A stretch of 64,000 bases of DNA, taken from the IMG/VR virus record IMGVR_UViG_3300045988_119718, positions 128,001 to 192,000 of that record, one strand, 5' to 3'. The notes beneath the pieces were generated by a model. It was not told the origin of the DNA. It did not search any database and saw nothing but the letters and a program-made list of their open reading frames with translations. Shown here piece after piece: positions 4,652 through 61,492 of this stretch. Within the stretch, counting starts at the first letter, position 1, and each line of letters begins with the position of its first letter. This DNA is from a virus. The translations under genes and the position numbers were made by a program.

Positions 4652-5812
4652 TCATAAAGCTAAATTCTGATTACCTGATAAGAATCTTTTAGAATAGTAA
4701 TCTAAATTAAATTCTCTAGTATCTTTATCTAAATATTCTCTACTAATATACTTATCAAAACATTCTTTTTCAATATCATAGATGACTTTTCTAGATATAC
4801 ATTTATTGTATGAGTTAAATATGTATCTAGTTTCTAATGGGCATTCTGTGCAATATGAAACATGATTACACTGAATACATCTATCAATGTTTTCATTTAA
4901 AAGATTAGTATATAGATTAGTAAAATTAGACATTGATTTAGAATCAAACCCAGTAGAAATATTTCCTAGTACTAAATCATTATTATTATCTAATAATCCA
5001 TCTATTTCTTTTAAAAGTAAACATGGATAAATATCCCCATTAGGCACTACCATAAACATCTTTCCGATATATCTGCATTTATGGTCATAAATAAAATCAG
5101 GGTTTATAAATTTATTATAAATCATATATGTAAGATTATCCAAATCAAAATCATACTGATTATACAGCATATATATTTTATGCAGCTGATGTATAAAGAT
5201 AGTTTTAAACTCTTCAGTATTATAATATTTAGAGTATTCATCATTAAAAATAAAATAGTAAGATAACTTCTTACACCCTTGTTCTAGTGCATATTGAATA
5301 GAGTCAGCTAAATAACAAATATTGTCTTTAGTAACTGCTATAGCTATCATAACTTCATTATTATACTTAGAACAGCCTACTTTATCAACAATAGTAGACA
5401 ACTGTTTATCAGTAAGATGAGTTTGGGCTATTTCAGAAGCATGAATACCATCCCATGATATTTTAACTGATTCAGGAGAAATTATCTTTATTAAATCATT
5501 CATAATAAAGTTGTGATTAGTACCATTAGATACTATACCAATCTTAACTGTTGTATCTTTATATCGCTCAATCTTTTTTAACTCTTTGCATAGATTATAA
5601 AGCTCATTAGGATATATAGTTATCTCTCCCCCTAATAAGTTTATATATAACTTAGGGCCGATATTTAAGGTCTTTAAAAACTCTACCAGCTCTTTGCCTT
5701 TATTGAATACATTGTGCCTAGACCTAGAGTTATTAGTCTCAAAGCAATATTTACAATTCAAATTACAATAGTCATTAAATTTTATCCCTAAGAAATCAAT
5801 TTGCTCATACAT
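4652..5812 (-). CDS. radical SAM enzyme with C-terminal SPASM-type auxiliary Cys cluster (peptide-modifying maturase-like)
   Basis: N-terminal 'CNLNCKYC' (CxxxCxxC) and C-terminal 'CIQCNHVSYCTECP'. Overlaps the upstream gene by 8 nt. Confidence 0.8.
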   Translation of the reverse strand: MYEQIDFLGIKFNDYCNLNCKYCFETNNSRSRHNVFNKGKELVEFLKTLNIGPKLYINLLGGEITIYPNELYNLCKELKKIERYKDTTVKIGIVSNGTNHNFIMNDLIKIISPESVKISWDGIHASEIAQTHLTDKQLSTIVDKVGCSKYNNEVMIAIAVTKDNICYLADSIQYALEQGCKKLSYYFIFNDEYSKYYNTEEFKTIFIHQLHKIYMLYNQYDFDLDNLTYMIYNKFINPDFIYDHKCRYIGKMFMVVPNGDIYPCLLLKEIDGLLDNNNDLVLGNISTGFDSKSMSNFTNLYTNLLNENIDRCIQCNHVSYCTECPLETRYIFNSYNKCISRKVIYDIEKECFDKYISREYLDKDTREFNLDYYSKRFLSGNQNLAL

Positions 5813-6992
5813 TTTTCATACCTAATAGCTTAATAAAATTGCTTACTAATTCGGCTTCTTCATCATTTTTCTGTATTGCTTCTATATTATTAATTCTATT
5901 AAAAGTATAATTATCCATCTTAGTAGTGGAGATATCAGTAGATAATGCAAACTTCAAATCTTCTGGTGAAGTATTAATAATCTTACCATTTAAAATTTTT
6001 TCATTATTAATTGCAATAGTAGCATATTTTCTTAACAATACTGCATACTTAATAACTTTAGATCTATCATAATAAGATAATCCTCTAAGAAGAGTCGGCA
6101 TATTGGTAAGACCATCATTGAACAAGTCGATGATCTTGTTCAATAATTTTTTACAAGTTGTAATTCTTTCTGCTCTATTTGTATTACTGATAGAAAATAA
6201 TAAGTACATCAGCATAGTATCACAGAATCTGAGATAACCATAGTTATACTTCTTATATTGATAATCTCCTATTTCACTATATAAGAAATTATCAAGCTTA
6301 TTATACAAATCCTGAAGATCTATTTTAATTCTATTATCTTCTAAAAGTTGATTGATATTATGAATATAGAAGCATACCCAATCACAGAATTGGGAGTTAA
6401 TATTATCTTTATCACTAGAATACTCTAAAGTCTTATTATAATACTTTTTAATAGTATTCATGCATTTGGATGTAATATCTTCTTCTGACATAGAATTTGT
6501 AATAAAGTCTTTAGAGATACTGTCTATAAGAATCTTGTAAGCAATATAGTTATAATAAATAAATTTACTATAGTTTTTAGATTCATGAGATTCAAAATAT
6601 TTAATAAAGGTTTTCATATAAGAGAAATAAACATCTTTTTTATTAGAATCATTAAAATCTATAAATGCAATTAATAATGCTAAATAGTTTTCATCATCTA
6701 ATGCTTTAGTATTATGAATATATTCTTCTCCAATAAAATCTTTACTAATTATTTCAAATTCTTGAAGTAAAATTGGTTCATTTTTTAATGATTCTTCAAT
6801 AGAAGATTTAATATCAGAGTATACTTTCTTATTATCTTCATTTTCTATAAACAAAGAAGAATATTTAATATATTCTTCAAATGTAGTAAAAGAATTATAT
6901 TTATCAGATAGAGCGTTAAGTTTATCTATTACATCAGATACTTTATTCTCTAATATATAATTATAAATTCTTTCTGGTAAAAAATATATCAT
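5805..6992 (-). CDS. hypothetical alpha-helical protein inside the rSAM operon (candidate leader-binding, scaffold or peptidase partner)
   Basis: 395-aa ORF with RBS 'tggaggt'. Tightly packed between two rSAM genes. No motif recognised. Confidence 0.55.
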   Translation of the reverse strand: MIYFLPERIYNYILENKVSDVIDKLNALSDKYNSFTTFEEYIKYSSLFIENEDNKKVYSDIKSSIEESLKNEPILLQEFEIISKDFIGEEYIHNTKALDDENYLALLIAFIDFNDSNKKDVYFSYMKTFIKYFESHESKNYSKFIYYNYIAYKILIDSISKDFITNSMSEEDITSKCMNTIKKYYNKTLEYSSDKDNINSQFCDWVCFYIHNINQLLEDNRIKIDLQDLYNKLDNFLYSEIGDYQYKKYNYGYLRFCDTMLMYLLFSISNTNRAERITTCKKLLNKIIDLFNDGLTNMPTLLRGLSYYDRSKVIKYAVLLRKYATIAINNEKILNGKIINTSPEDLKFALSTDISTTKMDNYTFNRINNIEAIQKNDEEAELVSNFIKLLGMKNV

Positions 6993-6993
6993 A

Positions 6994-8028
6994 TTAAACC
7001 TCCATATCTACATTATTAACCTTATATAACCAATTCTTATATCGCATAATTATTTTATAAAGTTCTGCTAATTCTTCATGATTAAGACTTGCTAAATATT
7101 TAGTAATAAGATTATCATAAACTTTCATAAGTTTACATGTTTCTGGTAAATAATTATCTAACCATTTATCACCAAACTTTAGCATTCTTTCATATCTACA
7201 TCCACCATCGCAAAGGTAAAAATATTTACAATTTTCTATCTGACAATCTTTACTGGTACAACGCTTCTGTATTTTATCAAAGTCTTCATATTTCTGTTCA
7301 GTAAATGCGATAGAAGTGCATGATGACATAGTTTTATCTGTAAGATAAGACTGTTCTTTACCTGCTGCGCATGACTGCATTGGTGCTCTATTAATATATG
7401 CCATTATCTTATTAAGATTTTCTGTATATGGATGCTCTAATGTACCTTCAAAAGTACAATAAAGATTCTCTTCTAAATCTTTAAACCATTGATCGTCATG
7501 GTCTTCACCTCTAGCAATACAGTATTGACCATTAATATGAAACTCTTTATCTAATCTATGGAATAACTTATTAAGTCTAGGTATATCTTTTACATTAGCA
7601 TTATTAATTACAGTCTTAATATCAAAGTGGTCTAGTCCTTCAGATATAGCATAATTAATATTATTCAATACTCTATCGGCAATACTTCTACCAGAAGTAT
7701 CTACTCTAGAATCTTTAAATCCATCCCAAGAAATTTGTAATTCTATATGCCATTTCTTTTGGAACTTAATAAACTCTTTCCAATTAGCCATACTAGAAGT
7801 TATAACTTGAAAGTTCATTTGATCGTGATACTTTTCTAAGGTGTATTCCATTAAGTCTAATCTCATTAATGGTTCTCCACCAAAGAATACCACTCTATTT
7901 GGTTTATTTTGCTCTATACACTCATCTATATCTTTTTCTGTAAGACAATCATTATTATACTTGATATAACAATAATGGCATCTATTAGGACATTGATTGG
8001 TTAAAAATAAATATATTTCTTTATACAT
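6994..8028 (-). CDS. radical SAM/SPASM enzyme (likely true start MYKEIYLF…)
   Basis: 'CPNRCHYC' near the N-terminus and a SPASM-like 'CKYFYLCDGGCRYE' near the C-terminus. Its start overlaps the stop of the upstream precursor gene as TAATG. Confidence 0.8.
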   Translation of the reverse strand: MYKEIYLFLTNQCPNRCHYCYIKYNNDCLTEKDIDECIEQNKPNRVVFFGGEPLMRLDLMEYTLEKYHDQMNFQVITSSMANWKEFIKFQKKWHIELQISWDGFKDSRVDTSGRSIADRVLNNINYAISEGLDHFDIKTVINNANVKDIPRLNKLFHRLDKEFHINGQYCIARGEDHDDQWFKDLEENLYCTFEGTLEHPYTENLNKIMAYINRAPMQSCAAGKEQSYLTDKTMSSCTSIAFTEQKYEDFDKIQKRCTSKDCQIENCKYFYLCDGGCRYERMLKFGDKWLDNYLPETCKLMKVYDNLITKYLASLNHEELAELYKIIMRYKNWLYKVNNVDMEV

Positions 8029-8501
8029 TAGAATCCACCACCACATTTCTTATCATGACATGTACCACCATGGCATGATTGGCAAGATATTTGGCAAGTA
8101 GACTGACAAGATGCTTGACATACAAGTTTGCATGGGCCTGCCCAATAATCATCAGACTTAGAATTCATTTGCTGTAGTAAAAGTTTTGCTATATTATAAA
8201 TAATACCTATATCATTAGCTGTAATTATTTTTTGTTTTTGAACTTTATTGTTGATATCTTTTAATTGATTATAGTTTGCTGAAGTAGTTCTAGAAAGCTG
8301 TGTAATAGTTTTACTATAACCATTACCACCTTTTCTACTTATTTCGTTATCAGTAACAGCATTAATAGAATCTAATTCTGTAATATTTGTAAGCAAACAA
8401 TTTATCGTATTATTAAAGAAATCATTTGTAATGAAATGATCTTTAGCAGGAGAATCTGGTAAATAATATTTTACAGATTGTCTAATTACTTCTGTAGCCA
8501 T
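8028..8501 (-). CDS. Cys-rich precursor-like peptide B: ~127-aa leader plus 30-aa core LVCQASCQSTCQISCQSCHGGTCHDKKCGGGF
   Basis: Start MATEVIRQ… overlaps the stop of precursor A (TAATG). The C-terminal 30 aa are identical to precursor A and contain 8 Cys at 3-4 residue spacing. Confidence 0.6.
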   Translation of the reverse strand: MATEVIRQSVKYYLPDSPAKDHFITNDFFNNTINCLLTNITELDSINAVTDNEISRKGGNGYSKTITQLSRTTSANYNQLKDINNKVQKQKIITANDIGIIYNIAKLLLQQMNSKSDDYWAGPCKLVCQASCQSTCQISCQSCHGGTCHDKKCGGGF

Positions 8502-8911
8502 TAGAAACCACCCCCACATTTCTTATCATGACATGTACCACCATGGCATGATTGGCAAGATATTTGGCAAGTAGACTGACAAGATGCTTGACAGACTAAT
8601 CCACATGTACCATTGTTATTCCAATATTTCCAAGAATGTTCTTGCAATACATTGGAAATAGATTTACATAAATTATATATAGCTTTAGCATCATCTGCTT
8701 TAATAACATCACCTTGACTGATTAAGCTAATAATAGAATGAACAGTTTTAGGAACACCAATTCTAGAATATTCTATAATCTGTTTCTTTCTATATTCGTC
8801 TTTCTCTAATTCATCTATATTAGATAACATAGTCTCAATCATGTTATCATAAATAGTCTTACTAGAATTGACTAAATTATAGTGTATACCATTATTTACT
8901 ATCTTTTCCAT
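8501..8911 (-). CDS. Cys-rich precursor-like peptide A: ~106-aa leader plus the identical 30-aa core
   Basis: 136-aa ORF ending …NGTCGLVCQASCQSTCQISCQSCHGGTCHDKKCGGGF. Immediately downstream of an rSAM/SPASM gene, which it overlaps. Confidence 0.6.
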   Translation of the reverse strand: MEKIVNNGIHYNLVNSSKTIYDNMIETMLSNIDELEKDEYRKKQIIEYSRIGVPKTVHSIISLISQGDVIKADDAKAIYNLCKSISNVLQEHSWKYWNNNGTCGLVCQASCQSTCQISCQSCHGGTCHDKKCGGGF

Positions 8912-10265
8912 TATCTTCTACACCACCTTTATTATTCAATGAATATAAAATCATAGTCATAAGAATTTCAGATTTCTTTCTAAAGTATTCTTCAAATGTA
9001 GGGAATACATTATCAGAACCCAAATTATTAATCATTTCTTTAAGATGAATCAATCTAAGCTTTAATGCAAAAGTATTAGATAAATCCGCAGTATCCATAA
9101 TCATATCGATATACTTCTTAATCTCTAAATTAGTCTTAAGAATATTTAAGTATCTACTTCTAATATTAGTAGCATTAAGAATCTCAGCTTGCTTAATAAT
9201 AATTACATCGGTCATAATCTTATGAAGATCACAATAAGATTGTAAGACTTTATTCTCATCACCATTTTCTCTAAGGTTTTCTTCAGGGCAACCATTCTTA
9301 CAATTTCCTTTAGCTTTACAAGTTTCACATTCTTCTTTTTGATATACTGCTTGTTTTTCTTTTCTATCAGTATGGACTTTGGTTTCATCTACGTCAGTAT
9401 AGATATTACCAATCTTCTGTACTAATTTAATTTCATCCTTAGAAGTTGGTAATTGATGGCATGGATAGATATCCCCATTATAATCAATAGTACACCATTT
9501 ATTCAATCCAATAGGGCAAAGTAAATCATCAGATACTTCTGGTTCCATAACCTGTCTCATAAAGTCATCTATATTCTTAATAGCTATATTTCTCTTAGAA
9601 CCTTCTTCATTAAGTTTATCGACATACATATCCACTAATTCAATATAGTTTTCTTTATAGTCATTCAGTTGTTCTTCTGTCCACTCTACATCAGTTACTG
9701 GCATAGGACAAATAGAATCTATTCCTAAAGTATTTACTAAGTAATCTACACCATCATACATATACTTTGCATCTTCTGGTAAGATAGTCATTCTAGCTTC
9801 AATAAATACTTTCAATCCATTAGTAATAAGAATCTTTAAGTTCTTTACTACTTGATTCCATGAATTAGAACGGTTCTTATCATGAACATGTTTAATACCA
9901 TCAATAGATACTAATAAACCAATATTATTATCATCTACGTATTGAATGAAGTCTTTTGGCAAGAATGATAAGTTAGTAGTCATACCATAATCTACTAATC
10001 TATGATGCTTATTATTATCATCTATAACTGCTTTAATACATTCCCAATTCAATAATGGCTCTCCACCAAAGAAATTGACTTGGAACCTTCTATTAAAACC
10101 AGATAAATCATTATATGCCAGTCTCATAGCATCTACTGCTACTTCTGGCTTCATATATTTTTTATTTTTATCTTTTTCAAAACAATAGATACATTTAAAA
10201 TTACAATCATTAGTAATATCCAATGTGATAGAATCACAATCATAGACTTCTCTAAATGGTTTCAT
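8892..10265 (-). CDS. radical SAM/SPASM enzyme (probable start at the internal ATG MKPFREV…, strong RBS GGAGGA)
   Basis: 'CNFKCIYC' and a SPASM-like 'CETCKAKGNCKNGCPEE'. The track ORF extends to 10322, but the RBS 'ggaggaataatt-ATG' supports a start near 10265. Confidence 0.8.
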   Translation of the reverse strand: MKPFREVYDCDSITLDITNDCNFKCIYCFEKDKNKKYMKPEVAVDAMRLAYNDLSGFNRRFQVNFFGGEPLLNWECIKAVIDDNNKHHRLVDYGMTTNLSFLPKDFIQYVDDNNIGLLVSIDGIKHVHDKNRSNSWNQVVKNLKILITNGLKVFIEARMTILPEDAKYMYDGVDYLVNTLGIDSICPMPVTDVEWTEEQLNDYKENYIELVDMYVDKLNEEGSKRNIAIKNIDDFMRQVMEPEVSDDLLCPIGLNKWCTIDYNGDIYPCHQLPTSKDEIKLVQKIGNIYTDVDETKVHTDRKEKQAVYQKEECETCKAKGNCKNGCPEENLRENGDENKVLQSYCDLHKIMTDVIIIKQAEILNATNIRSRYLNILKTNLEIKKYIDMIMDTADLSNTFALKLRLIHLKEMINNLGSDNVFPTFEEYFRKKSEILMTMILYSLNNKGGVEDNGKDSK

Positions 10266-10350
10266 AATTATTCCTCCTAAAAAATAAATTATTATAATGT
10301 AAAAAAGATTATTAGTAGCCATATAAACGGCTACTAATATTTTCTACTAA

Positions 10351-11337: not shown

Positions 11338-12444
11338 TTATCTCATATTATTCATATCTAAAATATAGTTAATCACTGGAGCAATAGCAGCAGCTTTAGC
11401 TTCTGCTTTCTCTTCTTCTTCTTTTTTAACGTATTCTTCTGTTTTCCAGTTCTGAGGAATTGTAGTATCTTTATAAACTTCGTTTACAAATTTACCACCA
11501 TTGATAGTAATAGAAGCTGTATCTTTATTGGTTACACCAGAAAGTTCAATATCGAAAGTACCATTCTCAATCGTAATCTTAGCTGATTCAGTCCATTTAG
11601 TACTTGTTCCTGGAAGAGTTTCAGGAGCTGAGGAAGATTTATCATATTCTACAGCACCTACTACTTTACCAGTGAAGTCCTTACCAAAAGTAATTACTGG
11701 AGCAGCATTATAATACTTCTTTAATAATCCATAATAGCAGTCAAATGCTACTCTACGGAATCCATCAGTATTAGGTGCATTGATAATTGTATTACCTTTG
11801 CAAGTTAATCCACCATAGTTATTGGATACTGCATATGCACACTGAGTTCCTTTAGAAATATCTACAGTTACATCTTCTAATACTAATTCAGAATAGTTCT
11901 GAATAAACATTTTGCAATTTGCAAAGTTAGTAGTAAGAGTACCATTCTTAAAAGTAACTTTACAACCTTCCATAAGTCTAAATGCAATAGTCTGATATTT
12001 AACACTAGCACCTACTAATGGAAGTTTAGAAACATTTACGGTATGACCATTTAAATCAAATGTAATGTATCTATCTTGAGTATGGTCATTTTCTACACCA
12101 ACTTGAGTACCACAAGTATCAATATCTTCTAAAAGAGTAATTGTAGTTTCAGTCTTAGGTTTAGCTGCATTTACTGCTTCTTGGAAAGTAGCATATTTTA
12201 CACCATTAGATTCAATTACATATTTTACAGCTTCAGTAGCACTAAATTCAACAGTAGTATCTGATTCTGCTACAGTATAAGTCTCTTTATTTAAAGTACC
12301 AGCTTTATAGCCTTCACTAGCTACAATAGAAGCAATGAGTTCTTTACCAGTTTCTACAGTATCACCATCATGATAAGTTTTAGAATCTAAATCTGAAACT
12401 GTAATAACCTGATTAGCAGATTGAATAATTTTTAAAGTTGCCAT
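11338..12444 (-). CDS. tail-fibre-like protein with N-terminal Ig-like repeat domain
   Basis: The N-terminus 'KIIQSANQVITVSDLDSKTYHDGDTVETGKELIASIVASEGYKAGTLN' matches the repeat consensus of the family. Confidence 0.55.
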   Translation of the reverse strand: MATLKIIQSANQVITVSDLDSKTYHDGDTVETGKELIASIVASEGYKAGTLNKETYTVAESDTTVEFSATEAVKYVIESNGVKYATFQEAVNAAKPKTETTITLLEDIDTCGTQVGVENDHTQDRYITFDLNGHTVNVSKLPLVGASVKYQTIAFRLMEGCKVTFKNGTLTTNFANCKMFIQNYSELVLEDVTVDISKGTQCAYAVSNNYGGLTCKGNTIINAPNTDGFRRVAFDCYYGLLKKYYNAAPVITFGKDFTGKVVGAVEYDKSSSAPETLPGTSTKWTESAKITIENGTFDIELSGVTNKDTASITINGGKFVNEVYKDTTIPQNWKTEEYVKKEEEEKAEAKAAAIAPVINYILDMNNMR

Positions 12445-12464: not shown

Positions 12465-12887
12465 TTAATAATCGGTTAAAGTAGGAGTTTTATTATTTAT
12501 TTCAGGAGAATATTTTATATAAAATCTGTCTATATAAGATTCACCACCACGAACACCAACGTACACCCTAATAGAGTATCGCTTATTCGGAGTTACACCA
12601 ATATATCCTAGAAATGAAATCGTCTCGCCATAATCACCACCACGGTACCATTGTTTGTTATTACTAAATACAGTCATACAAACTGGGTAATCCTCCTCGT
12701 GAGACGAACTAGCACTTGCATATACTTCAATCACATGTATACCATTAGGAATTGTGATAGTTCTAGTAATATCATCATTATAAGTATTTTGTTCATTTAC
12801 CAAATACCCTGTTGGTATGCTTACGGTTGCTGGGCTAGCCGTGAATGTTAGCCCCCCCCCAATTATACCTTTCATTGTTGTAGCCAT
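12465..12887 (-). CDS. small tail-associated protein with an in-frame poly-G tract (9 G = GGG codons); 'ON' member of a phase-variable paralogue pair
   Basis: MATTMKGIIGGGLTF… The homopolymer lies at codons 10-12. The paralogue at 31790..32201 has 10 G and is frameshifted. Confidence 0.55.
   Translation of the reverse strand: MATTMKGIIGGGLTFTASPATVSIPTGYLVNEQNTYNDDITRTITIPNGIHVIEVYASASSSHEEDYPVCMTVFSNNKQWYRGGDYGETISFLGYIGVTPNKRYSIRVYVGVRGGESYIDRFYIKYSPEINNKTPTLTDY
12852..12860 (-). repeat. homopolymeric G9 tract (C9 on the + strand) inside the CDS
   Basis: Seen directly as 'gccccccccc'. Confidence 0.9.
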
Positions 12888-12918: not shown

Positions 12919-13674
12919 TTATGATACTATAGTGTATTGTGATGCAGATAATCCAGCACCATCGAATCCTGCTGGTGGATTCTTAATCTTAACATTTCTA
13001 AGTTTATGAGAATAGTTAAACATTTCATTCCAATGCTTGCATGATTTCATATCAATTACACCTTTAATGGTAGTAAGATTATAGCATTTATAGAACATCA
13101 AGACCATATCAGTTACTTTAGAAGTATCAAAATTAGATATGTTCAATGTGGTAAGATTATCACAGTTAGAGAACATAGAGGCCATACTTTCTACATTAGA
13201 AGTATCGAAGTTGGATAAGTCTAACGATGTAAGATTACGACAATCCCAAAACATACCTTCCATAGTATACACATTAGAAGTATCAAAGCTAGATACATCT
13301 AATGAAATAAGTTTAGAGCAGTTAGAGAACATAAATTCCATATCTATTGCATTAGAAGTATCGAAATTAGATACGTTTATTGAAGTGAGTTTAGGGTGAC
13401 CATAGGCATTTTTAAACATACCTTCCATAGTATATACTTTAGAAGTACTAAAATTAGATAAGTCTAATGAAGTAAGATTATCAGTGCAGTGACCAAACAT
13501 ATAGCTCATACTCATTACAAAACCATCACATGTAACTGTAGCTTGACCTGGGACTGATGTATCTATTTTATCCACACAGGATTTATCATCCCAATTATCA
13601 TTATACCATGGACTAGAACCTTTAGCTATAAAAATTTGATCTTTGAAGGCTGCATAGCTAACAGTAATAGTCAT
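12919..13674 (-). CDS. DUF285 / 'Liste_lipo_26' 26-residue LRR-like repeat protein (surface-binding module)
   Basis: At least 5 tandem repeats of 'LTSLDLSNFDTSNVxSMxxMFxxCxNL'. Confidence 0.65.
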   Translation of the reverse strand: MTITVSYAAFKDQIFIAKGSSPWYNDNWDDKSCVDKIDTSVPGQATVTCDGFVMSMSYMFGHCTDNLTSLDLSNFSTSKVYTMEGMFKNAYGHPKLTSINVSNFDTSNAIDMEFMFSNCSKLISLDVSSFDTSNVYTMEGMFWDCRNLTSLDLSNFDTSNVESMASMFSNCDNLTTLNISNFDTSKVTDMVLMFYKCYNLTTIKGVIDMKSCKHWNEMFNYSHKLRNVKIKNPPAGFDGAGLSASQYTIVS

Positions 13675-13685
13675 ATCACTATTAA

Positions 13686-14708
13686 TTACCCCCCCCCACT
13701 AACGTTCAATGCTCCTGGTTTATACCCACTATCAGCTATAACTTCAGCTTCATATGTAGTTCCCCTTGGACAAGTAAAGGTAGAAGTATGATCGGTTCCT
13801 CCATTCTTTTGAGGTGTATAAACGTGAATAGTCTGGTTAGCAGACTGAACAATAGTTACTGTAGCATTAGCTACTGTTGCAGCTTTAGCACTAATAATCA
13901 TATTGCTATTAAATGTACCACCCTTGGTATTTGGTGTACCTGCTATATAATTATTAGCAGCTATAACTTCTACTTCATAAGTAGTACCTACAGAGCAGGT
14001 GAATGATGAAGTGTGGTCAGTACCACCAGATTTTCTAGGTGTATATACATGGATAGTCTGATTATCACTTTGAACTATAGTTATTTTAGCATAGGATATA
14101 GCAGGGTTAGCATTAATAGACATATCACTATTAATTGTACCATTCTCATTAACATTTAATGACCCTGCTGTATAACCATTTTCAGCTATAACTTCAGCTT
14201 CATATGTAGTTCCCCTTGGACAAGTAAATGTAGAGGTATGATCTGTTCCACCAGACTTCTTAGGAGTATACACATGAATAGTTTGATTAGCAGATTGGGT
14301 AATAGTTACAGTAGCATTAGATTTTGTAGCAGAAGTAGCATTGATAGTTTTATTTTTAGTAAATGTACCACTTCTGCTAATATTTAGTGTTCCTGCCTTA
14401 TAACTATTTTCAGCTATAACTTCAGCTTCATAAGTAGTTCCTGCTAGACAGGTAAAGGTAGAAGTATAATCTATACCACCAATCTTTTTCGGTACATATA
14501 CATGAATAGTTTGATTATCTGACTGATTAATAGTAATTGTAATATTCTTTTTTTCATTATGAGTTTTCTTATAAAGGTCATCTATTAGATCTTGTAATTT
14601 CTTCCAAGTAGGGTCATCTTTAGAGATTCTTTTTAGAAGAATATTTTGAAGAGAAGCATCTAAATCTTCTAATCTTATTCTTCTAATTTCCTTTTTGTTA
14701 TCATTCAT
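13686..14708 (-). CDS. tail-fibre-like protein with 4 tandem Ig-like repeats; ends GGG-stop inside a G9 tract
   Basis: Four repeats of 'QSANQTIHVYTPKKSGGTDHTSTFTCPRGTTYEAEVIAENGYTAGSLN'. Confidence 0.65.
   Translation of the reverse strand: MNDNKKEIRRIRLEDLDASLQNILLKRISKDDPTWKKLQDLIDDLYKKTHNEKKNITITINQSDNQTIHVYVPKKIGGIDYTSTFTCLAGTTYEAEVIAENSYKAGTLNISRSGTFTKNKTINATSATKSNATVTITQSANQTIHVYTPKKSGGTDHTSTFTCPRGTTYEAEVIAENGYTAGSLNVNENGTINSDMSINANPAISYAKITIVQSDNQTIHVYTPRKSGGTDHTSSFTCSVGTTYEVEVIAANNYIAGTPNTKGGTFNSNMIISAKAATVANATVTIVQSANQTIHVYTPQKNGGTDHTSTFTCPRGTTYEAEVIADSGYKPGALNVSGGG
13689..13697 (-). repeat. homopolymeric G9 tract immediately before the stop codon; a +1 G would fuse the gene in frame to the downstream DUF285 gene
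   Basis: 'taccccccccact' on the + strand. Hand translation of the 10-G variant reads GGGVINSDMTITVSYAAF…, in frame with the start of 12919..13674. Confidence 0.85.
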
Positions 14709-14719
14709 AATATCACCTA

Positions 14720-15742
14720 TTATGAAACTCTATACCAAGCTGCTAATACTGCACCATATGGATTATTTGGTAATGGAGTAGATTTACAATTTGGTGATAA
14801 AGTTGAAGAGATAGTATGTCTATGAGCACCATCAGTAGATGTATTAGGTAAAACATCATCCTTGTCAGATTTTCCGCAGCCTAAATTTTTATTACTACTG
14901 TCATACACCCCCCATTTGCATCTATCAGGCCAATGCTCACCAAATACGGTTCCATGATGATGATCGCCGGTTGTATTAGTTGAACTACCGTTATGACTAT
15001 GCGGAGGCAAATTAGCCTCTGTAAACTTTAATGTGCTACTACCAGTCTTAGTAGTTATATCTGAAGTAGAATTCTTAATATTAACTTCCTCTACACTAGG
15101 ACTACCAATCTTTACATATGCATCACTAATTCTTACCCAATGTGTTCCTGGATATTCTGTACTAGGATTTACATTATAAGCATAGAATATAACTCTGCCT
15201 ACAGCTGGTACACCACTTACATCATCACTAGTCATTACTCTCTTAAATTTGGTATTATTTATATTACCATTACTAGCTCGAATGTATAATTTTCCATCTG
15301 GTTGAGAGATAAATAATTGTGTAGAATAATTTGTGTCTTTATCATAAGGCATATTTATTAATTGACCAGAACTAGCAGGTTGATTAGAAATAGTAGGTCT
15401 ATTGTAATTTGAAATATACATGCCTTGACTATTCCAATCAGCATCACTTGTTCCAGGATTATAGTTATCTTCTAATTTATGGAATGCTTCCCATACTTCA
15501 GTTTTCTTAACAAATTGATCAGTTATATTACCTAAATTATCTGCAATAAAATTTAGCTTTTTTACTAATTCATCATAACTATCTTTAGTTACTGTATTCT
15601 TAAATAGCTCTTGTAATGATGGAGCTAATTCTTCAAAGGTGATCTTATTTTCATTATCAACTTCAGCCATTAAAAAACCTCCAATCTTATTGATTCTAAT
15701 AGGTTTACGCCTATAGGTTACTAGTATGTTAATGTGCTCCAT
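14720..15742 (-). CDS. hypothetical tail-associated protein
   Basis: 340-aa ORF, first gene of the minus-strand block after the divergent intergenic region. Confidence 0.5.
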   Translation of the reverse strand: MEHINILVTYRRKPIRINKIGGFLMAEVDNENKITFEELAPSLQELFKNTVTKDSYDELVKKLNFIADNLGNITDQFVKKTEVWEAFHKLEDNYNPGTSDADWNSQGMYISNYNRPTISNQPASSGQLINMPYDKDTNYSTQLFISQPDGKLYIRASNGNINNTKFKRVMTSDDVSGVPAVGRVIFYAYNVNPSTEYPGTHWVRISDAYVKIGSPSVEEVNIKNSTSDITTKTGSSTLKFTEANLPPHSHNGSSTNTTGDHHHGTVFGEHWPDRCKWGVYDSSNKNLGCGKSDKDDVLPNTSTDGAHRHTISSTLSPNCKSTPLPNNPYGAVLAAWYRVS

Positions 15743-18589: not shown

Positions 18590-19831
18590 ATGCCAGAAAC
18601 TAAATATTTTCTTGATGCGGCTGGTTTAGCTCGTTTTAAAACAAAGCAGGATGCAGCTAATGAAGGCAAATTCTTAGGTATTAATGCTAAAGCTAAGACT
18701 GCTGGTGCAGCAGATACCGCTGCAAAGCTTGCTGCTGCTGTAGCTATCAACGGTGTACTCTTTGATGGTTCTAAGGCTATTACTATTGAAGATGGCACTA
18801 AGCTTTCTCTCGCTGATGCTGAAAAGCTTTATCTCAAGAAGGCTACTGCTGATACCACCTATCTTCCGCTCCATGGTACTGCCGATAAAGCAACCAAGCT
18901 TGCTAATCAGGTAAAGATCAATGGTGTACTCTTTGATGGCTCTGCTGATATCACTGTAGAAGATGCTACCAAGTTACCGCTCCATGGTAAGGCTGATACC
19001 GCTGGTACTGCTGACACTGCTGCTGAAGCTACTCATGCTGCTGCCGCAGATACTGCAACCAAACTTGCAGCTGCTGTAACGATTAACGGTGTTGACTTCG
19101 ATGGTTCTAAAGCTATCACTATCAATGCTGTAGATTCAACTGCTCGTATCGCTGAATCTGAGAAGGGTGTTGCAAACGGTGTTGCTACCCTTGATACTGC
19201 TGGTAAGGTTCCGGCTGCTCAGTTACCGTCTTACGTTGATGACGTAAAAGAATATGAAAACAAGGCTGCTTTCCCTGAAACTGGTGAAGCTGATAAGATT
19301 TATGTAGATATTGATACCGGTAGCATTTATCGTTGGTCTGGTACGCAGTATATTCAGATTAATACTTCTGTAGCATCTGCTGATACTGCTGTCAAACTTG
19401 CAACGGCTCGCAAGATTGCTGGTGTTCCGTTTGATGGTTCTGCTGATATCACCATTCCGGCTGGTAACGTCGGTGCTTTCACCAAAGAAGAAACCACTAC
19501 TACCTTCCTTTCCAAAGCTGATGCTACGACTACTTATGTTGCTATTACTCCAGGCAAAGACCTCTCTGATAACAACTTCACGACTGAACTTCTCACCAAA
19601 CTTAACGGTATTGAAGAAGGTGCTAACAAGTATGATCTTCCGCAGGCTTCCTCTACCACCCTCGGCGGTGTAACGGTTGGCAGCAACATTACCGTAAAGA
19701 CTGGTACTATTTCTTTAGCTAAGGAAAATGTAATTGCAGCTCTCGGTTATACTCCGTCTGATTCCGCAGCAGAAGTACCGGTAGAAGCTATTTCCGATAC
19801 CGAAATCGATAAGCTCTTTGCTACTGAATAA
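18590..19831 (+). CDS. tail fibre protein with Phage_fiber_2-type repeats (AxKLAxAxxINGVxFDGSxxITI); atypical codon usage
   Basis: At least 5 repeats such as 'ATKLANQVKINGVLFDGSADITV'. Codons are GCT/GGT/CCG/CTC-rich, unlike the genome-wide A/T-ending preference. Confidence 0.7.
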   Translation: MPETKYFLDAAGLARFKTKQDAANEGKFLGINAKAKTAGAADTAAKLAAAVAINGVLFDGSKAITIEDGTKLSLADAEKLYLKKATADTTYLPLHGTADKATKLANQVKINGVLFDGSADITVEDATKLPLHGKADTAGTADTAAEATHAAAADTATKLAAAVTINGVDFDGSKAITINAVDSTARIAESEKGVANGVATLDTAGKVPAAQLPSYVDDVKEYENKAAFPETGEADKIYVDIDTGSIYRWSGTQYIQINTSVASADTAVKLATARKIAGVPFDGSADITIPAGNVGAFTKEETTTTFLSKADATTTYVAITPGKDLSDNNFTTELLTKLNGIEEGANKYDLPQASSTTLGGVTVGSNITVKTGTISLAKENVIAALGYTPSDSAAEVPVEAISDTEIDKLFATE

Positions 19832-23393: not shown

Positions 23394-24773
23394 TTATTTA
23401 CCATCGAAGTCTGCTGCCATAGTTGCAAGAATCTGTAAAGGCATACCCATTGTGTAGTCATCATTAATAGCTACACATTGTACTGCCAGAATAGAACCAT
23501 AATTAATTGTAGGATTACGATTAATCAATACATTAATACCAGAAGTATCGATGATATTTTGAATAATATCTCTAATACGTTTATCCTCTTTCAGTAATCC
23601 TTGCTTATATCTCATATATGCTGTATTATATGAAATATTATAAGTTCTTACTAAAATATTAATTACAGTCTGTTGAAGTAATTCCAATAATGTAAAATAA
23701 GATAATGTAACCTGATCTACTCTAAGTTTAGGGTCGGGAACAATAACTGATCTAGATGTAAATCCACATCTACCACCAATCAGTCTTTTAATAACACCAT
23801 TCTTATCTTTGCAGATATTAATTACTTCAGTATACAGCTCCAGATATCTCTGTTGAAGATTCCACAATAGTACATTTCTATGTTTTGGAATTCTGTAAAT
23901 AGACAATGTGTCATCATTAATCTTAGCTGCTAACTTAGCCATCATATTATAGATACCATTGGTTTTTTCATATGTAAATCTACCATCTCTTCTATCAAAT
24001 GGTCTAAGAGCTGTAGAATACACTGGAATACTATGAATAAAGATTTTATCTCTATTCTCTAAGATATCTTGATAATAATCAGGTTTCTTATTTTTATTCT
24101 TCTTATGAAAATATTCTAGGATTTCATCAAATCTATGATAAAATTCAATCAATCCAATTCCTTTATACTTTTCATCTAACTTAGTCTTTCTAGTAGACCT
24201 CTTAGCTGTAGATTTAATAATTTTAGAAGAATACTTTTGTACTGGTTTACCATTTTCATCGAGATCAATAATTGGTTCTACAATAGAAGCAAACTGATCT
24301 TTACCAATATAGCTTTCCAATACATAGAATAAATTCGGATGAATAATTGGATATCCTTCTTTAAGAGTAATCCAACCAGTCATCTCAAAATCTTCACCTA
24401 CATAGATTACTCTGGAATGACAATATGGGCAGATCATTCCTTCATAATTCTTCCCTTGTGTTCTTTTGCATTTACAAGAATATCTATCTGTAAATGCATC
24501 AGGGTCTTGCATAGTTTTTGTAAACTTGGATGAGAAAATAGAATTATCGCTTTTTAATCCTACATCAATAGCTTTCTTATCATCCTCAGGTTCATCAATA
24601 ATAAACCCTTTTCCCGATATCAGGTCTTTTGCTTTCTCTTCATCTAGATTTAATCGTAACAACCTAGTTTGGAAAGTAAACTTCTTTGATACTGGATAAT
24701 TAACGGTTAAGTTTAATTCCATATTACTCTCCTTCTCTTTAAAAACAAATAAAAAAGAATGAGTCAAGCTCAT
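23394..24773 (-). CDS. rpoC: RNAP beta-prime N-terminal fragment, exon 1 (Zn finger to catalytic AADFDG)
   Basis: 'CKCKRTQGKNYEGMICPYCHSRV' (Zn ribbon), 'LRPFDRRDGRF', 'INRNPTINYGSILAVQ…AADFDG' then an in-frame stop because of the intron. Confidence 0.8.
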   Translation of the reverse strand: MSLTHSFLFVFKEKESNMELNLTVNYPVSKKFTFQTRLLRLNLDEEKAKDLISGKGFIIDEPEDDKKAIDVGLKSDNSIFSSKFTKTMQDPDAFTDRYSCKCKRTQGKNYEGMICPYCHSRVIYVGEDFEMTGWITLKEGYPIIHPNLFYVLESYIGKDQFASIVEPIIDLDENGKPVQKYSSKIIKSTAKRSTRKTKLDEKYKGIGLIEFYHRFDEILEYFHKKNKNKKPDYYQDILENRDKIFIHSIPVYSTALRPFDRRDGRFTYEKTNGIYNMMAKLAAKINDDTLSIYRIPKHRNVLLWNLQQRYLELYTEVINICKDKNGVIKRLIGGRCGFTSRSVIVPDPKLRVDQVTLSYFTLLELLQQTVINILVRTYNISYNTAYMRYKQGLLKEDKRIRDIIQNIIDTSGINVLINRNPTINYGSILAVQCVAINDDYTMGMPLQILATMAADFDGK

Positions 24774-24788
24774 TCTTTTTTATATTAT

Positions 24789-25085
24789 CTACTTGTTTTT
24801 ATCTTTGTCAATCTTAATATGAATACCGCTATCATCTTTTTTAAATTTTATTTTAAGATCAAACAGTATATTTGCAATATCACTAAGTACTCCAGCTACA
24901 CCACTACTTTCTGTTGGGCTATCATCTGGATAATAGTTTCTCTTAATTCTATGAGTATTGGATTTATCAATACGATTAACGACATGTCTCAATTCTTTCT
25001 TTTCATCTGTCATAATAAACATCCTTCCCATAAAAATAATTGTTACTGAATATGATGAGGCATGGTATTCATAGCAAAAATACAA
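24789..25085 (-). CDS. hypothetical protein
   Basis: 98-aa ORF. Confidence 0.4.
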   Translation of the reverse strand: MYFCYEYHASSYSVTIIFMGRMFIMTDEKKELRHVVNRIDKSNTHRIKRNYYPDDSPTESSGVAGVLSDIANILFDLKIKFKKDDSGIHIKIDKDKNK

Positions 25086-25351
25086 CCGTCATCATATGAG
25101 CACTCAGGTATTCCTTTAAGATTGATATCTACATGAGTTAAAGCTTCATTGAAAATATCAAATAAATGCATAATTTTACCGTCTGGATATTTGATTTTCC
25201 AATCCAGCATTCGTCTTATATCAACATTCATCTCGATATCATTATCATTATATAAGGTATATACTTCTTTACCTTTCTCATCGATAATCTTTAACTCATA
25301 ATCAGTATTGTTTTGTATCATCATTATTATCACCTTCTTTACTAACAACAA
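25043..25351 (-). CDS. hypothetical protein
   Basis: 102-aa ORF. Confidence 0.4.
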   Translation of the reverse strand: MLLVKKVIIMMIQNNTDYELKIIDEKGKEVYTLYNDNDIEMNVDIRRMLDWKIKYPDGKIMHLFDIFNEALTHVDINLKGIPECSYDDGCIFAMNTMPHHIQ

Positions 25352-25754
25352 TAGACTGATTATGCCACAACTTAATCATTCTTTTATAAAGCAAATTAAG
25401 CCTTCTTACTTTGTTATACCTTTTAGAAAAAGTATAGTACAAACTAAGAATACAAATATTAGATGGCTTAGGAATGGCAGCAAAATCACTTTCTTGTTTC
25501 GCATCACGTACCATATTCATAATAACCTCAGAATTCCAAACAAGATTTCCATGATTATCGTAAATGTCACTCATTGGATTATCAATAATTTGTTTATCGA
25601 AATCATACAACGCATTATAAACCTCAGGTTTATAATTACCATTAGCATCTTTACATACGCTAAAGAAATACCTTTCAATAGCTGTTGTAGGAATAGCGAT
25701 AACGTTTGTAGGCAAACGATCATTAGAACCTTTTTTATCAAATACTAATTTCAT
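25302..25754 (-). CDS. hypothetical protein, paralogue of 25941..26378
   Basis: Shared '(A/C)(I/V)PTT…(G/H)GN(Y/I)KP(E/S)VYN(A/M)LY…KPS(N/T)(I/L)C(I/L)…LYYT'. Confidence 0.5.
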   Translation of the reverse strand: MKLVFDKKGSNDRLPTNVIAIPTTAIERYFFSVCKDANGNYKPEVYNALYDFDKQIIDNPMSDIYDNHGNLVWNSEVIMNMVRDAKQESDFAAIPKPSNICILSLYYTFSKRYNKVRRLNLLYKRMIKLWHNQSIVVSKEGDNNDDTKQY

Positions 25755-25940
25755 TTTAATTACTCCTTTACTTCATACAAAATAAGTGCTACAAAATTCA
25801 TATACACATGATCCCCAGTAGATGAAGTTTTATATCAATAATTTTACCTTTATCCTCTGCTTGAATTTCTGTAATACGTTCATTAATTAAACTTTCTATA
25901 GAATAATCACGATCAGTTACAGTATTATATTTAACGCACG

Positions 25941-26378
25941 CTACTTGTACCATTTTTCTTCCTCCGTATCTTTGAGTAAAATATCTATACCAGCCTTAAT
26001 AATTTTATCTGTCATTTCACGATTATTATTAATAGTATAGAATAAGTCGATCAAGCACAAAGTACTAGGCTTTAGAAATGGTAATTTTTTTATAGTCCAC
26101 TTATCTTCTTCTTTATCACGCAACCTTTCTACTTCATCCTTAATAATTTGGGATGCAATATATGCATCCCTATTGTCATCACCATAACTATCATGAAAAA
26201 TATTATCAACAATACCATCTCTGTAATTGTATAACATATTATACACAGATGGTTTAATATTTCCATGCTCATCAGTGGACTTCTTAATAAATTCTTTCTC
26301 CTCTTCTGTTGTTGGAACACAACAGATTCGATTTTTTTCAAATAATAAGCATTCATCATCATCAACACGAATTATCAT
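25941..26378 (-). CDS. hypothetical protein, paralogue of 25302..25754
   Basis: As above. Confidence 0.5.
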   Translation of the reverse strand: MIIRVDDDECLLFEKNRICCVPTTEEEKEFIKKSTDEHGNIKPSVYNMLYNYRDGIVDNIFHDSYGDDNRDAYIASQIIKDEVERLRDKEEDKWTIKKLPFLKPSTLCLIDLFYTINNNREMTDKIIKAGIDILLKDTEEEKWYK

Positions 26379-26470
26379 TTAATATTACTCCTTTCTTAAA
26401 TACAATCTGAAGATTTCAGATTATTATACATTCAATAATATAATATACAATTATTTTTAATTTTTAAAAT

Positions 26471-26498
26471 ATACTGAGCCTAATATTAGGCTCAGTAT
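26471..26498 (-). terminator. hairpin 'tactgagcctaatattaggctcagta'
   Basis: Seen directly, 3' of the minus gene 26503..26751. Confidence 0.45.
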
Positions 26499-26502
26499 AG
26501 TA

Positions 26503-26751
26503 TTATCTATTTTTATATTTAACCATCAAGATATTACCAATTCTTATAGGCAATACATTAGCATATACTCTAGATTCAGCATCTATAGATATATTAAGTT
26601 TAACCCCTCTAGGGCCTATCATTTTATAGTCTGACTGTTTTACTCTAGTACCATTAATATCTATTGATATAATACGTGCATTCATTCTATACTTATAGTT
26701 ATTAGAGAAGTAAAATTCATTACCGTTCTTTCTTACTAGTTCTATTCTCAT
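26503..26751 (-). CDS. hypothetical protein
   Basis: 82-aa ORF. Confidence 0.4.
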   Translation of the reverse strand: MRIELVRKNGNEFYFSNNYKYRMNARIISIDINGTRVKQSDYKMIGPRGVKLNISIDAESRVYANVLPIRIGNILMVKYKNR

Positions 26752-26755
26752 AATA

Positions 26756-28012
26756 TCACTTCTTTAATCCGAATGCTTTCCATACATCTATTTCATGAAG
26801 TTTAACTGTAGAGTCATGGAATGCCTTTAATGCTTTAAGCTTTAATGCTGATGCTACTTGTGGCATAGCAACACCAATATCTTTAAATCCCGCTCTATAG
26901 AATAGATTTCCTGCACATACATTACAAATCTTATTAGGTTCTTTATATTCACATAAAGAAGAGAATCTCATTCTAACTGTTTTACCTAAATATTTATCTT
27001 TATTAGTAGAATTCAATTCTATAAGTTTATTTCCTTCTACTATATAAGAATACATCATAAGTTTAATATTATACTTATCTAATGTAATTTCTATAGTTCT
27101 CTTAGTACCACAATCAGTTCCTTTAGGAGCTAAAGTAAGATGCTGAAATGCTCTTAATAATAGTTTTTCATTGTACCCGCCTTCAGGGGTCTTCTTAGAT
27201 CTAGAATATGGGCCAGCTGCTAATGCTTTAGCTAATTTAGAATAATCATCTCTAGAAATACCATCAATGTAACTTGACATAGCTACGTCATAACCCTTAG
27301 TAGGGTCTGGGTCTTTAATAGCACCTTTCATTACAAAGATATTTTTAAAGTTATTAGCAAAAGAACCTTTAGCTTTGGAATCATACATATCCATAGATAT
27401 ATCATCTTTAAGTTCTTTTTTAGCATAGTCTAATAATTCTTTTTCTATCTTATCCGCAGCATACATATTTCTTTCTGGATCTGCTAATTCATCTGCATAT
27501 TTCTTTTCTAATTGTTTTTTCATTTTATCAATCTTATAAGAAATAGTAAGCATGTTTGTAGTAAATCCAGAGCATAGTATATTACAATAAGGCTGGAATT
27601 TCTGCTGTCTCATTAAATATCTTTTTAATGCAGACAATGGTAATCTATCTTCCATAATAGCATATGAAATCTGATCATTCATATCGCCTAATACATCTTT
27701 ATTTATAGGCTTATTGATATAATGGAATAAATCAAATAAGTCTTGTTCTATAAAACACTTATTGAACCACCATCTACCTAAAGTAGTAGTAAAAGTATTT
27801 TTATTCTTCTTATTACCAATACCATAAGAATTAGGTGGAATAGTAATAATATCATATGTATTATACTTTGGTGCTTTACCATTTAAAGTACCAAAAGTTT
27901 CCATAAGTTTAGAAAGAGATTCTACATCTTTTTGAGATAAATTTAAAAAATAATCTACTTCATCTTTGTTTGTAATCTTTCTAGCAACACGTTTGTTAGT
28001 AGATACTGCCAT
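26756..28012 (-). CDS. rpoC: RNAP beta-prime fragment containing the bridge helix and the start of the trigger loop
   Basis: 'KTPEGGYNEKLLLRAFQHLTLAPKGTDCGT' matches '[28 protein letters not shown]'. 'CNVCAGNLFYRAGFKDIGVAMPQVASAL' matches '[30 protein letters not shown]'. Confidence 0.75.
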   Translation of the reverse strand: MAVSTNKRVARKITNKDEVDYFLNLSQKDVESLSKLMETFGTLNGKAPKYNTYDIITIPPNSYGIGNKKNKNTFTTTLGRWWFNKCFIEQDLFDLFHYINKPINKDVLGDMNDQISYAIMEDRLPLSALKRYLMRQQKFQPYCNILCSGFTTNMLTISYKIDKMKKQLEKKYADELADPERNMYAADKIEKELLDYAKKELKDDISMDMYDSKAKGSFANNFKNIFVMKGAIKDPDPTKGYDVAMSSYIDGISRDDYSKLAKALAAGPYSRSKKTPEGGYNEKLLLRAFQHLTLAPKGTDCGTKRTIEITLDKYNIKLMMYSYIVEGNKLIELNSTNKDKYLGKTVRMRFSSLCEYKEPNKICNVCAGNLFYRAGFKDIGVAMPQVASALKLKALKAFHDSTVKLHEIDVWKAFGLKK

Positions 28013-28015
28013 TTA

Positions 28016-31789: not shown

Positions 31790-32201
31790 TTAATAATCTG
31801 TAACAGTAGGAGGTATTTTATTTATTTCAGAAGACCAAGACATAACGACACTAACACCACCAACTTCTTCACCAAAGTCGGATTCGTATGTAAGTTGTAA
31901 CTCATATGTTTTTTTAGGTGTCACACCAACATAGCTAATACTAGTAGCTGAGTCACCATAACCAGTAACAGATGCCCAGATATTACTAGAACCACCAAGC
32001 TCGCCTTTATACGCACCTGATTGAGATTCAGCATCAATATCACATTTAATAACCCTTACTGATTCTGGTGGAATAAAACTAAATGATGTTATACTATCAG
32101 TGCTTTCAAACCTACTATCACTAGTTATTTGAGCTGTTGCGGGGCTAGCACTAAATACTACTACCCCCCCCCCGTATAGTTCCTTTTAAAGTTGTTGTCA
32201 T
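31790..32201 (-). pseudogene. frameshifted ('OFF') paralogue of 12465..12887; the ATG with strong RBS reads 16 codons to a stop because the poly-G tract has 10 G, while a 9-G version encodes a ~137-aa protein ending …KIPPTVTDY
   Basis: Hand translation with 9 G gives MTTTLKGTIRGGVVVFSASPATAQI…VGVTPKKTYELQLTYE…KIPPTVTDY*, which parallels MATTMKGIIGGGLTFTASPATVSI…IGVTPNKRYSIRVYVG…KTPTLTDY*. Confidence 0.55.
32164..32173 (-). repeat. homopolymeric G10 tract (C10 on the + strand)
   Basis: 'ctaccccccccccgtat'. Confidence 0.9.
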
Positions 32202-61280: not shown

Positions 61281-61492
61281 TTATGAAAAAAGCCTTTTAT
61301 TCTAAAGTGATTATAATTTTATATATCTATTTTCTATAAATAACGCATAGAAGATTTTCTATATGTCCGGAAAATTAACAAAGGTTTTTAAACTGGAATA
61401 GTTCAAAAGTGTAATAGACTTCTACAACTTTATAAACTATTCTTTACTGAAGAAGTGTAAAACTTTTATTTTTATTGAAAGGAGAAAACTTT

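Follow-up and report, generated by a model that had tools for sequence, protein, structure and literature searches.

We have analysed a stretch of 64,000 nucleotides (nt) of viral DNA, positions 128,001 to 192,000 of the IMG/VR virus record IMGVR_UViG_3300045988_119718 (hereafter the window), in which two adjacent open reading frames (ORFs) on the minus strand meet at a run of nine guanines. The first of these encodes a shaft of immunoglobulin-like (Ig-like) repeats and the second a DUF285/leucine-rich-repeat (LRR) protein. We think it highly probable that the guanine run, designated T2, is a hypermutable polyG contingency locus that changes length by slippage at the DNA level, and that it lies within a jumbo-phage fibre gene that carries a DUF285/LRR tip.

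The polyG tract and its reading frames

The elements at the junction are the following.

13689..13697, minus strand (C9 on the plus strand): T2 polyG tract, G9, at the shaft/tip junction of the fibre gene.
13686..14708, minus strand: shaft ORF as sequenced, 340 amino acids (aa), with a helical N-terminal adaptor, three whole Ig-like repeats and a cut fourth.
12919..13688, minus strand: rest of the fibre gene in the G10/G7 frame, consisting of VINSDMTITVSYA, a linker QIFIAKGSSPWYN and a DUF285/LRR-like tip.

Read on the minus strand, the sequence at T2 is ...GCA TTG AAC GTT AGT GGG GGG GGG TAA TTA ATA GTG ATA TGA CTA..., and the product of ORF 13686..14708 has the C-terminus ...NVSGGG with the TAA directly after the tract, as the first-pass annotation of this DNA had described. 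The second ORF, 12919..13674, encodes 251 aa from an ATG at 13674, which lies 11 nt past the TAA of the upstream ORF. Editing the tract in silico shows that one nt more or less decides whether the product is full-length or truncated: G10 gives ...SGGGVINSDMTITVSYAAFKDQIF... and reads past the ATG at 13674 as far as the stop at 12919, for a product of 596 aa, and G7 likewise fuses both ORFs, into 595 aa, while G9 as sequenced ends in GGG and the stop after 340 aa, and G8 in GGGN and the stop after 341 aa. The 10-G translation made by hand in the first-pass annotation did join the two ORFs in frame, and the fusion product it predicted stands, at 596 aa for G10 in place of the estimated ~595 aa. 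Its description of the event as a +1 slip is not correct for the ribosome, where the counterpart of an extra G, whether in DNA or in RNA, is a frameshift of -1. T2 falls within the length range of coding homopolymers at contingency loci (about 7 nt or more), as do two further tracts, T1 and T3, described below. A recoded, locked-OFF form of the G9 tract would be GGAGGTGGA.

The split ORFs as a single fibre gene

The shaft repeats are ~75 aa each and end ...G(T)(I/F)NS(D/N)M.I.A..., and the fourth repeat in the 340-aa ORF ends before its last two beta-strands. The VINSDMTITVSYA that follows the tract matches the ends of repeats 2 and 3, and the post-tract residues read with one extra G, GGGVINSDMTITVSYA, finish the fourth repeat. 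The tip itself matches Pfam family DUF285 (PF03382, E = 7.8e-34, 116 bits, with a gathering cut-off of 25).

The same architecture is found uninterrupted in relatives. Four orthologues with the same N-terminus, MNDNKKEIRRIRLEDLD, are single ORFs of 466-565 aa with DUF285 (P0089, P0090, P0093 and P0098), and a related 231-kb contig (L001) encodes elsewhere in its genome an uninterrupted and tract-free Ig-repeat and DUF285 protein of 639 aa, which is 57% identical over 410 aa to the repaired window protein and colinear with it across the junction. An AlphaFold2 model of one natural in-frame orthologue (P0090; predicted local distance difference test score 85.7) begins with helices, continues through four Ig-like β domains and ends in a solenoid, with the tract-encoded glycines 338-340 in the turn that precedes the last two strands of Ig domain 4. 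Its structural neighbours are the Ig-like domain strings of Gram-positive pilins, and LRR proteins. Because the post-tract residues complete Ig repeat 4 and relatives encode one uninterrupted ORF, we conclude that ORFs 13686..14708 and 12919..13674 are a single predicted fibre gene whose native form is the fused one; the earlier suggestion that they form one fibre, restored by a 1-nt change in length, is supported by the architecture of the orthologues.

Variation in tract length among relatives

The lineage of the window was recovered through the protein of a neighbouring small gene, an exact-flank search for it in IMG/VR having given no match. An independent assembly from the ENA (L045) matches the window at 2236 of 2243 nt (99.7%) over a span that takes in the fibre with its tip and the gene that follows. 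Only one indel separates the two, and it falls in T2, which is G8 in L045 (...GGGN and a stop, 341 aa) and G9 in the window. Length polymorphism between near-identical genomes is characteristic of contingency loci, and it was found both in this pair and among smaller phages with identical flanks. The states seen at the homologous tract include the following.

L054, jumbo clade: fibre tract G10, in frame, 565-aa DUF285 fibre.
L055, jumbo clade: fibre tract G7, in frame, a 467-aa product that bears another tip.
L056 and L057, jumbo clade, two independent datasets: fibre tract G8, truncated at ...GGGGN and a stop.
Small phages with flank ACG(n)TAAT: tracts of G5, G6, G7, G8 and G9, full-length at G5 and G8 only.
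Small phages with flank GCG(n)AGGATC: tracts of G7 and G8, full-length at G7 only, G8 truncated.

Within the jumbo clade, at least 10 clusters of fibre proteins read through the tract and at least 8 stop there, the latter ending in GGG, GGGG, GGGN, GGGGN or GGGSI. The small-phage homologues were found by a DNA pattern that combines the tract with the codons for I-N-S/G-D-M-T at the junction, and it brought up homologues of the fibre gene on 11 IMG/VR contigs, on 15 contigs from metagenomes and on one contig of a metagenome-assembled genome. These contigs are mostly 14-70 kb in length and 42-52% in G+C content, and their fibre has one Ig repeat, with the tract at exactly the same codon position, ...GY.AGTLNV.-Gn-.IN.DMTF.... 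Some 14 of the ~27 small-phage loci are in frame and ~13 are out of frame, needing either +1 or -1 nt; we note that L011 and L035 may be one contig, and that the in-frame L009 stops 32 codons later. A scan of the genome collection with the pattern gave one true homologue (L050, a contig binned with Fusicatenibacter), and the seven other matches were due to chance.

We favour length variation at the DNA level because the in-frame and both out-of-frame states occur at one conserved site with identical flanks. The comparison of homologous loci proposed in the first-pass annotation, fused or separate, thus finds both states, and its idea of a switch in the architecture of the fibre tip is borne out by the fused and split homologues. 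A slip that changes frame at the G9 run is therefore upheld as heritable variation in length; it is not upheld as a programmed transcriptional or translational slip, the fibre-junction tracts of the relatives running from G5 to G10 in mixed frames.

Tract occurrence and chance expectation

The window has a G+C content of 29%, and runs of C of lengths 2 to 6 occur in it 1262, 124, 21, 4 and 1 times, respectively. Beyond these there are outlier G or C runs at 12852-12860 (C9), 13689-13697 (C9), 32164-32173 (C10) and 62267-62274 (G8), such that four runs of at least 8 nt are observed where ~0.03 are expected under either an order-0 or a first-order Markov model. Outside the tracts only 7.3% of glycine codons are GGG, four further Gly-Gly-Gly triplets of the window are encoded by mixtures of GGT, GGA and GGC, and the use of GGGGGGGGG to code for Gly-Gly-Gly is confined to the two in-ORF tracts of the window. 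The excess of runs together with the avoidance of GGG elsewhere indicates that the tracts are kept at the nucleotide level, and the codon position of T2 is the same in phages of 29% GC and of 42-52% GC. On these compositional grounds the tract is, we believe, maintained by selection acting at the DNA level.

Knob genes and exchangeable tips

Two other coding tracts in the window lie at the N-termini of small genes for knob proteins.

12852..12860, minus strand: T1 polyG tract, G9, ON (in frame), forming codons 10-12 of a knob gene.
12465..12887, minus strand: free-standing knob gene, 140 aa, MATTMKGII-GGG-LTFTASPA...TLTDY, with a predicted TNF/C1q-like jelly-roll domain.
32164..32173, minus strand: T3 polyG tract, G10, OFF (out of frame), in a paralogue of the T1 knob gene and at the matching codons.
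31790..32201, minus strand: paralogous knob gene, with its ATG at 32201, a strong AAGGAGG ribosome-binding site before it and its stop at 31790-31792.

At G10, T3 gives MTTTLKGTIRGGGSSI and a stop, 16 codons in all, and at G9 it would give 136 aa. With the tract set to G9, the paralogue is 34% identical to the product of the T1 gene (E = 4e-14); it is absent from the ORF lists. Searches of Pfam and PHROGs gave no matches for the small knob proteins, and the TNF/C1q-like fold was assigned by structure prediction. The T1-homologous tracts of relatives are G9, G10 or G11, and at the DNA level G9 is ON and G10 and G11 are OFF. Among 88 clusters of knob homologues, 33 have the canonical Met followed by 2-5 glycines (in-frame length variants), 22 are clearly shifted at the tract (18 start inside it and 4 use an upstream alternative frame), and 33 are called from downstream starts, the G run being lost in one only.

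Two further observations concern these knob genes. In L054 (7733-8603) the fibre gene is followed by two tandem knob genes, of which the first is ON at G9 and the second OFF at G10, indicating that the number of switchable knob genes differs between genomes. In three of the knob homologues (P0034, P0056 and P0086) an ATG within the Shine-Dalgarno (SD) region opens a second frame, MEEYY..NNRGG-LTFTASPA, and two of the three tract frames might in this way yield knob proteins with distinct N-terminal peptides.

The knobs share homology over their whole length with the 124-aa post-tract tip of many small-phage fibres (E down to 3e-13), in alignments that begin at the tract-encoded glycines, and in six jumbo-clade proteins (P0095, P0096, P0097, P0099, P0102 and P0106) a knob is fused behind the tract to the four-repeat shaft. 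At least three types of tip follow the junction: DUF285, a TNF-like knob with ...VTDY at its C-terminus, and a domain of 150 aa that closes with ...KVTYTLL. The presence of a shared junction before several tips, which occur either fused or free, indicates that the tip modules are exchangeable and have their 5′ boundary at the polyG tract. The locus noticed in the first-pass annotation is thus real without being a one-off, in that the window has three coding polyG tracts and DUF285 is one of at least three tips.

Rearrangements of other kinds are also seen at these loci. L012 and L015 have post-tract tips of 60-61 aa, which are internally deleted forms of the 150-aa tip in which ...TEYAYNSDNIGIKDKEQIKVTYTLL joins the start of the domain to its end; tip modules thus seem to undergo internal rearrangement as well. 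In a 231-kb relative (L007, 9041-9847) the syntenic fibre gene shares the N-terminal ~55 aa and one Ig-like repeat with the window's fibre; its distal domain is unrelated to that of the window and there is no tract, showing replacement of tip and shaft at the fibre locus between close relatives.

A broader reading, which we regard as unlikely, is that the polyG tract is a portable switch-linker cassette that moves with tip modules among unrelated gut phages and also serves as a recombination joint, and that the truncated shaft accepts free knobs in trans. The latter is proposed because the truncated shaft is without its last two strands and the knobs keep the equivalent strand N-terminally (GGG-LTFTASPA). 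If this were true, the three switches would select among alternative tips instead of only losing one. A pairing of tip OFF with knob ON was sought in six syntenic genomes, and the states look independent (OFF/ON in 2, ON/ON in 2 and OFF/OFF in 2), giving no support for trans-complementation.

Alternative explanations

Four points weigh against interpretation of T2 as a hypermutable locus. Switching within a population, and its rate, are read from differences between assemblies; both genomes of the window lineage are out of frame (the window at G9 and L045 at G8); the nearest in-frame orthologue is 77-79% identical; and consensus tract lengths from metagenomes are open to homopolymer errors or mixed populations.

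The strongest competing explanation, although an improbable one, is programmed recoding, in which the G9 tract is a designed element and a fixed fraction of ribosomes (by a -1 P-site slip) or of RNA polymerases (by an extra G) makes the fused fibre. In the window the tract runs straight into a stop codon, and the small-phage context found most often, ACG GGG GGG TAA, shows the same arrangement independently. The sequence G GGG GGG GG before the TAA of the window is of the slippery type, permitting perfect re-pairing of tRNA-Gly after a -1 slip, a feature that is necessary for a programmed -1 frameshift without being sufficient for it. Long homopolymers also cause some polymerase slippage, and low-level rescue of the OFF state by this means is plausible. 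However, the homologues are variously in frame, in need of +1 or in need of -1 nt, such that no one shift is conserved, and even the near-identical L045, at G8, would require a different shift from that of the window. The 109 nt downstream fold no better than shuffled sequences (z = -0.24), and there is thus no sign of a stimulatory structure; transcriptional slippage in bacteria is efficient on runs of A or T and poor on runs of G or C, which also counts against recoding. Finally, the purpose of making two products is impossible for tracts of the same type at the N-termini of the knob genes.

Somewhat less probable again is that the true T2 is G10 (or G7), that the gene is intact, and that the interruption arises from a miscalled homopolymer in sequencing or assembly. 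Homopolymers of G9-G10 are hard for every platform and a one-base error would be sufficient. Against this, none of the ~105 runs of A or T in the window that are 6-9 nt long interrupts an ORF, and another G9 tract (T1), 830 nt away, is in frame. Most of the comparison contigs bear SPAdes or MEGAHIT names, and are therefore taken to be short-read assemblies. L045, which was assembled independently from the same lineage, likewise has the gene out of frame, at another length, and identical OFF lengths are found in independent datasets (L056 and L057), with about half of some 40 loci or clusters out of frame. Even if the window were miscalled, the tract would remain a conserved hypermutable site.

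The first-pass annotation also supposed that the unslipped state supplies a free LRR protein, and this now appears doubtful. The ATG at 13674 is the internal Met of the Ig-repeat motif INSDM and is replaced by Lys in most orthologues (VINSDKTINAT). The sole SD-like sequence available to it is the tract itself, which ends 14 nt upstream, whereas authentic start codons in the vicinity are preceded, at 5-10 nt, by AGGAGG, GAAGG or AGGTGA. A search for a promoter or terminator between the two ORFs found none above background. Because the ATG is internal, is often Lys and has an SD-like sequence at the wrong spacing, a designed free LRR protein is unlikely, and a small amount of free tip could arise through termination-reinitiation. 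We therefore give very little credence to two truly separate genes, one for a tipless repeat protein and the other for an independent DUF285 protein, or to a decaying pseudogene: gene callers do annotate two ORFs (P0092 and P0111) and the short distance from stop to ATG would allow some reinitiation, but the start codon and its surroundings argue against a separate gene, the 251 codons of the second ORF remain intact, with 99% conservation in the two assemblies of the lineage, and close relatives alternate between in-frame and out-of-frame states, a reversible behaviour that is not expected of decay.

A model for switching of the fibre tip

If T2 is a contingency locus of the kind that we favour, slipped-strand mispairing during replication of the phage DNA would alter its length. 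Tracts of G7 or G10 would then yield a complete fibre, with the N-terminal adaptor, four Ig-like domains and the DUF285/LRR tip, and tracts of G8 or G9 would bring a stop at or just after the tract and so leave a tipless shaft with an incomplete last Ig domain. T1 and T3 would switch the two small TNF/C1q-like knob genes at their N-termini, and the three switches together would be expected to give mixed populations of virions that differ in their receptor-binding equipment, a form of bet-hedging against variable host surfaces. Domain identity is what points to a receptor-binding role for the tip and the knobs. We infer that switching is reversible and frequent within a population, and that it would affect adsorption or host range.

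Genomic context of the locus

The genes on either side of the fibre and the free-standing knob are as follows.

14720..15742, minus strand: upstream gene, tail/baseplate protein with a T4 Gp10 C-terminal domain (Pfam PF21939, E = 3.8e-6).
11338..12444, minus strand: downstream gene, 368-aa protein with one Ig-like repeat of the same type at its start.

The upstream gene also matches PHROG 5717, a tail protein (E = 3e-16), and this places the locus in the baseplate-fibre module; the downstream gene is conserved in every syntenic relative. A further tail-fibre gene is present at 18590..19831. There was no match to the window in a megablast search against deposited phages, and tblastn with the Gp10-like protein found no close cultured relative. 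Split genes for the β subunit of a multisubunit RNA polymerase (PHROGs 2987 and 2962) lie at 23394-29068 on the minus strand with an HNH endonuclease gene alongside, and the relatives of the window phage are 230-263 kb in size; from these matches and sizes it seems likely that the window derives from a φKZ/AR9-like jumbo phage. Radical-SAM enzymes and a thymidylate-synthase-like gene are also encoded. The hosts are tentatively Lachnospiraceae-type gut bacteria: one small-phage contig was binned with Fusicatenibacter saccharivorans, and of the cultured phages whose named host belongs to the Lachnospiraceae, those of Butyrivibrio match best in DUF285.

Some other parts of the window merit comment. 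Within 4652-10322 (minus strand) the adjacent ORFs 8028..8519 and 8501..8911 share a Cys-rich tail, C.LVCQASCQSTCQISCQSCHGGTCHDKKCGGGF, and are flanked by three radical-SAM genes, one of which has a SPASM domain. This region looks like a cluster for a radical-SAM-modified peptide, similar to those for ribosomally synthesised and post-translationally modified peptides, adjoining the fibre module. Its conservation extends to L007, L045, L054 and L055. At 38665-45945 (minus strand) there is an ORF of 2426 aa which, with neighbouring ORFs of 1035 aa and 927 aa, has no PHROG match at E <= 1e-5. A scan of the window against Rfam and for tRNA genes found nothing.

The remaining long G run, the G8 at 62267-62274, belongs to a G-rich patch at 62230-62290, ggagggaaagggggatgggggttctagggggtaggggggggaaggg, within an AT-rich and ORF-free stretch of 1.8 kb (61281-63096). 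Neither an Rfam family nor an exact IMG/VR copy was found for the patch, which could be a G-quadruplex or regulatory element. We considered it as a part of the switch system and set it aside, as it is intergenic, has no ORF logic and has no copy elsewhere.

Implications and comparison with known systems

To our knowledge, phase-variable receptor-binding proteins (RBPs) have been shown experimentally in Campylobacter phages only. Sorensen and colleagues are said to have found polyG tracts bioinformatically, in work of 2021, in many other phage genera. Here, about 40 relatives bear the signature of a switch, in the jumbo clade and in a group of ~40-kb phages, all of them uncultured phages of human-gut type. 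As a record from natural populations this is unusually clean, one site with identical flanks having lengths of G5 to G10 and about half its copies out of frame. Fibre genes that are split at G tracts in metagenomic phages should accordingly not be annotated as two genes or as pseudogenes, and prediction of host range from fibre sequences must allow for switchable tips. The junction …GY.AGTLNVS-Gn-VINSD.T… provides a marker for exchangeable tip modules and a natural site for the engineering of tips.

Among systems that make two forms of a structural protein, lambda G/GT and T7 10A/10B resemble the window's locus in that the two forms have a common N-terminus and one has a C-terminal extension in another frame. 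Those systems use a fixed slippery site, with a conserved frame relation and a fixed ratio of products, whereas here the frame relation varies and there is no stimulatory element. The inversion of the Mu G segment by Gin and the diversity-generating retroelement of BPP-1 have the same purpose, the diversification of the distal, receptor-binding part of a fibre, although by site-specific inversion or mutagenic retrohoming and not, as here, by homopolymer slippage; no invertase or reverse transcriptase gene was seen next to the fibre locus.

The contingency loci of phages T2 and T4 (Gomez, Barrick & Waters, 10.1101/2025.10.21.683753) are similar, according to that account, in that frameshifts in homopolymer runs are reversible and give population heterogeneity. 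As described there, they are mostly short runs (>=6 nt) in many classes of gene and are under-represented in the tail-fibre genes of coliphages; the window differs in having long G9-G10 tracts that are concentrated in fibre and knob genes. A close likeness is also seen with the bacterial contingency loci of Campylobacter, Haemophilus and Neisseria, which share the proposed mechanism of slipped-strand mispairing, over-long tracts, a location in genes for surface interaction, and ON/OFF polymorphism between near-identical genomes. Here, in contrast, the loci are virus-borne and affect virion proteins, and switching would occur during replication of the phage and not along a cell lineage.

The nearest parallel is with the Fletchervirus phages of Campylobacter, in whose RBP genes polyG tracts with 7-11 G are hypermutable (Sorensen et al. 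2021, in the summary given by 10.1101/2025.10.21.683753). In the same summary these tracts are described as creating subpopulations of phage that infect hosts without the phase-variable receptor, and polyG tracts are noted in BPP-1 and in PB1-like phages, alongside shorter contingency loci in T2 and T4 (10.1101/2025.10.21.683753). As in Fletchervirus, the G tracts of the window lie inside fibre or RBP genes, their length shifts the reading frame, and there are several tracts per genome. The differences are nonetheless substantial. There is no sequence homology, and group II Campylobacter phages match only as generic DUF285 proteins at ~27% identity (tblastn). The phages are an uncultured gut jumbo phage with a multisubunit RNA polymerase and ~40-kb phages that are tentatively tied to Lachnospiraceae. 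The tract is at the boundary of shaft and tip and removes the tip only, its position is conserved over very divergent phages and before different tip modules, and its switching is read from assemblies.

A literature search found no description of the present clade or of its junction. What is new is the occurrence of the system in other, uncultured phages, the removal of the tip only, the conserved site before varied tips, and evidence at the scale of populations from public assemblies. The locus thus appears, from its tract, its frames and its relatives, to work like the Fletchervirus switch but outside that family of RBP sequences.

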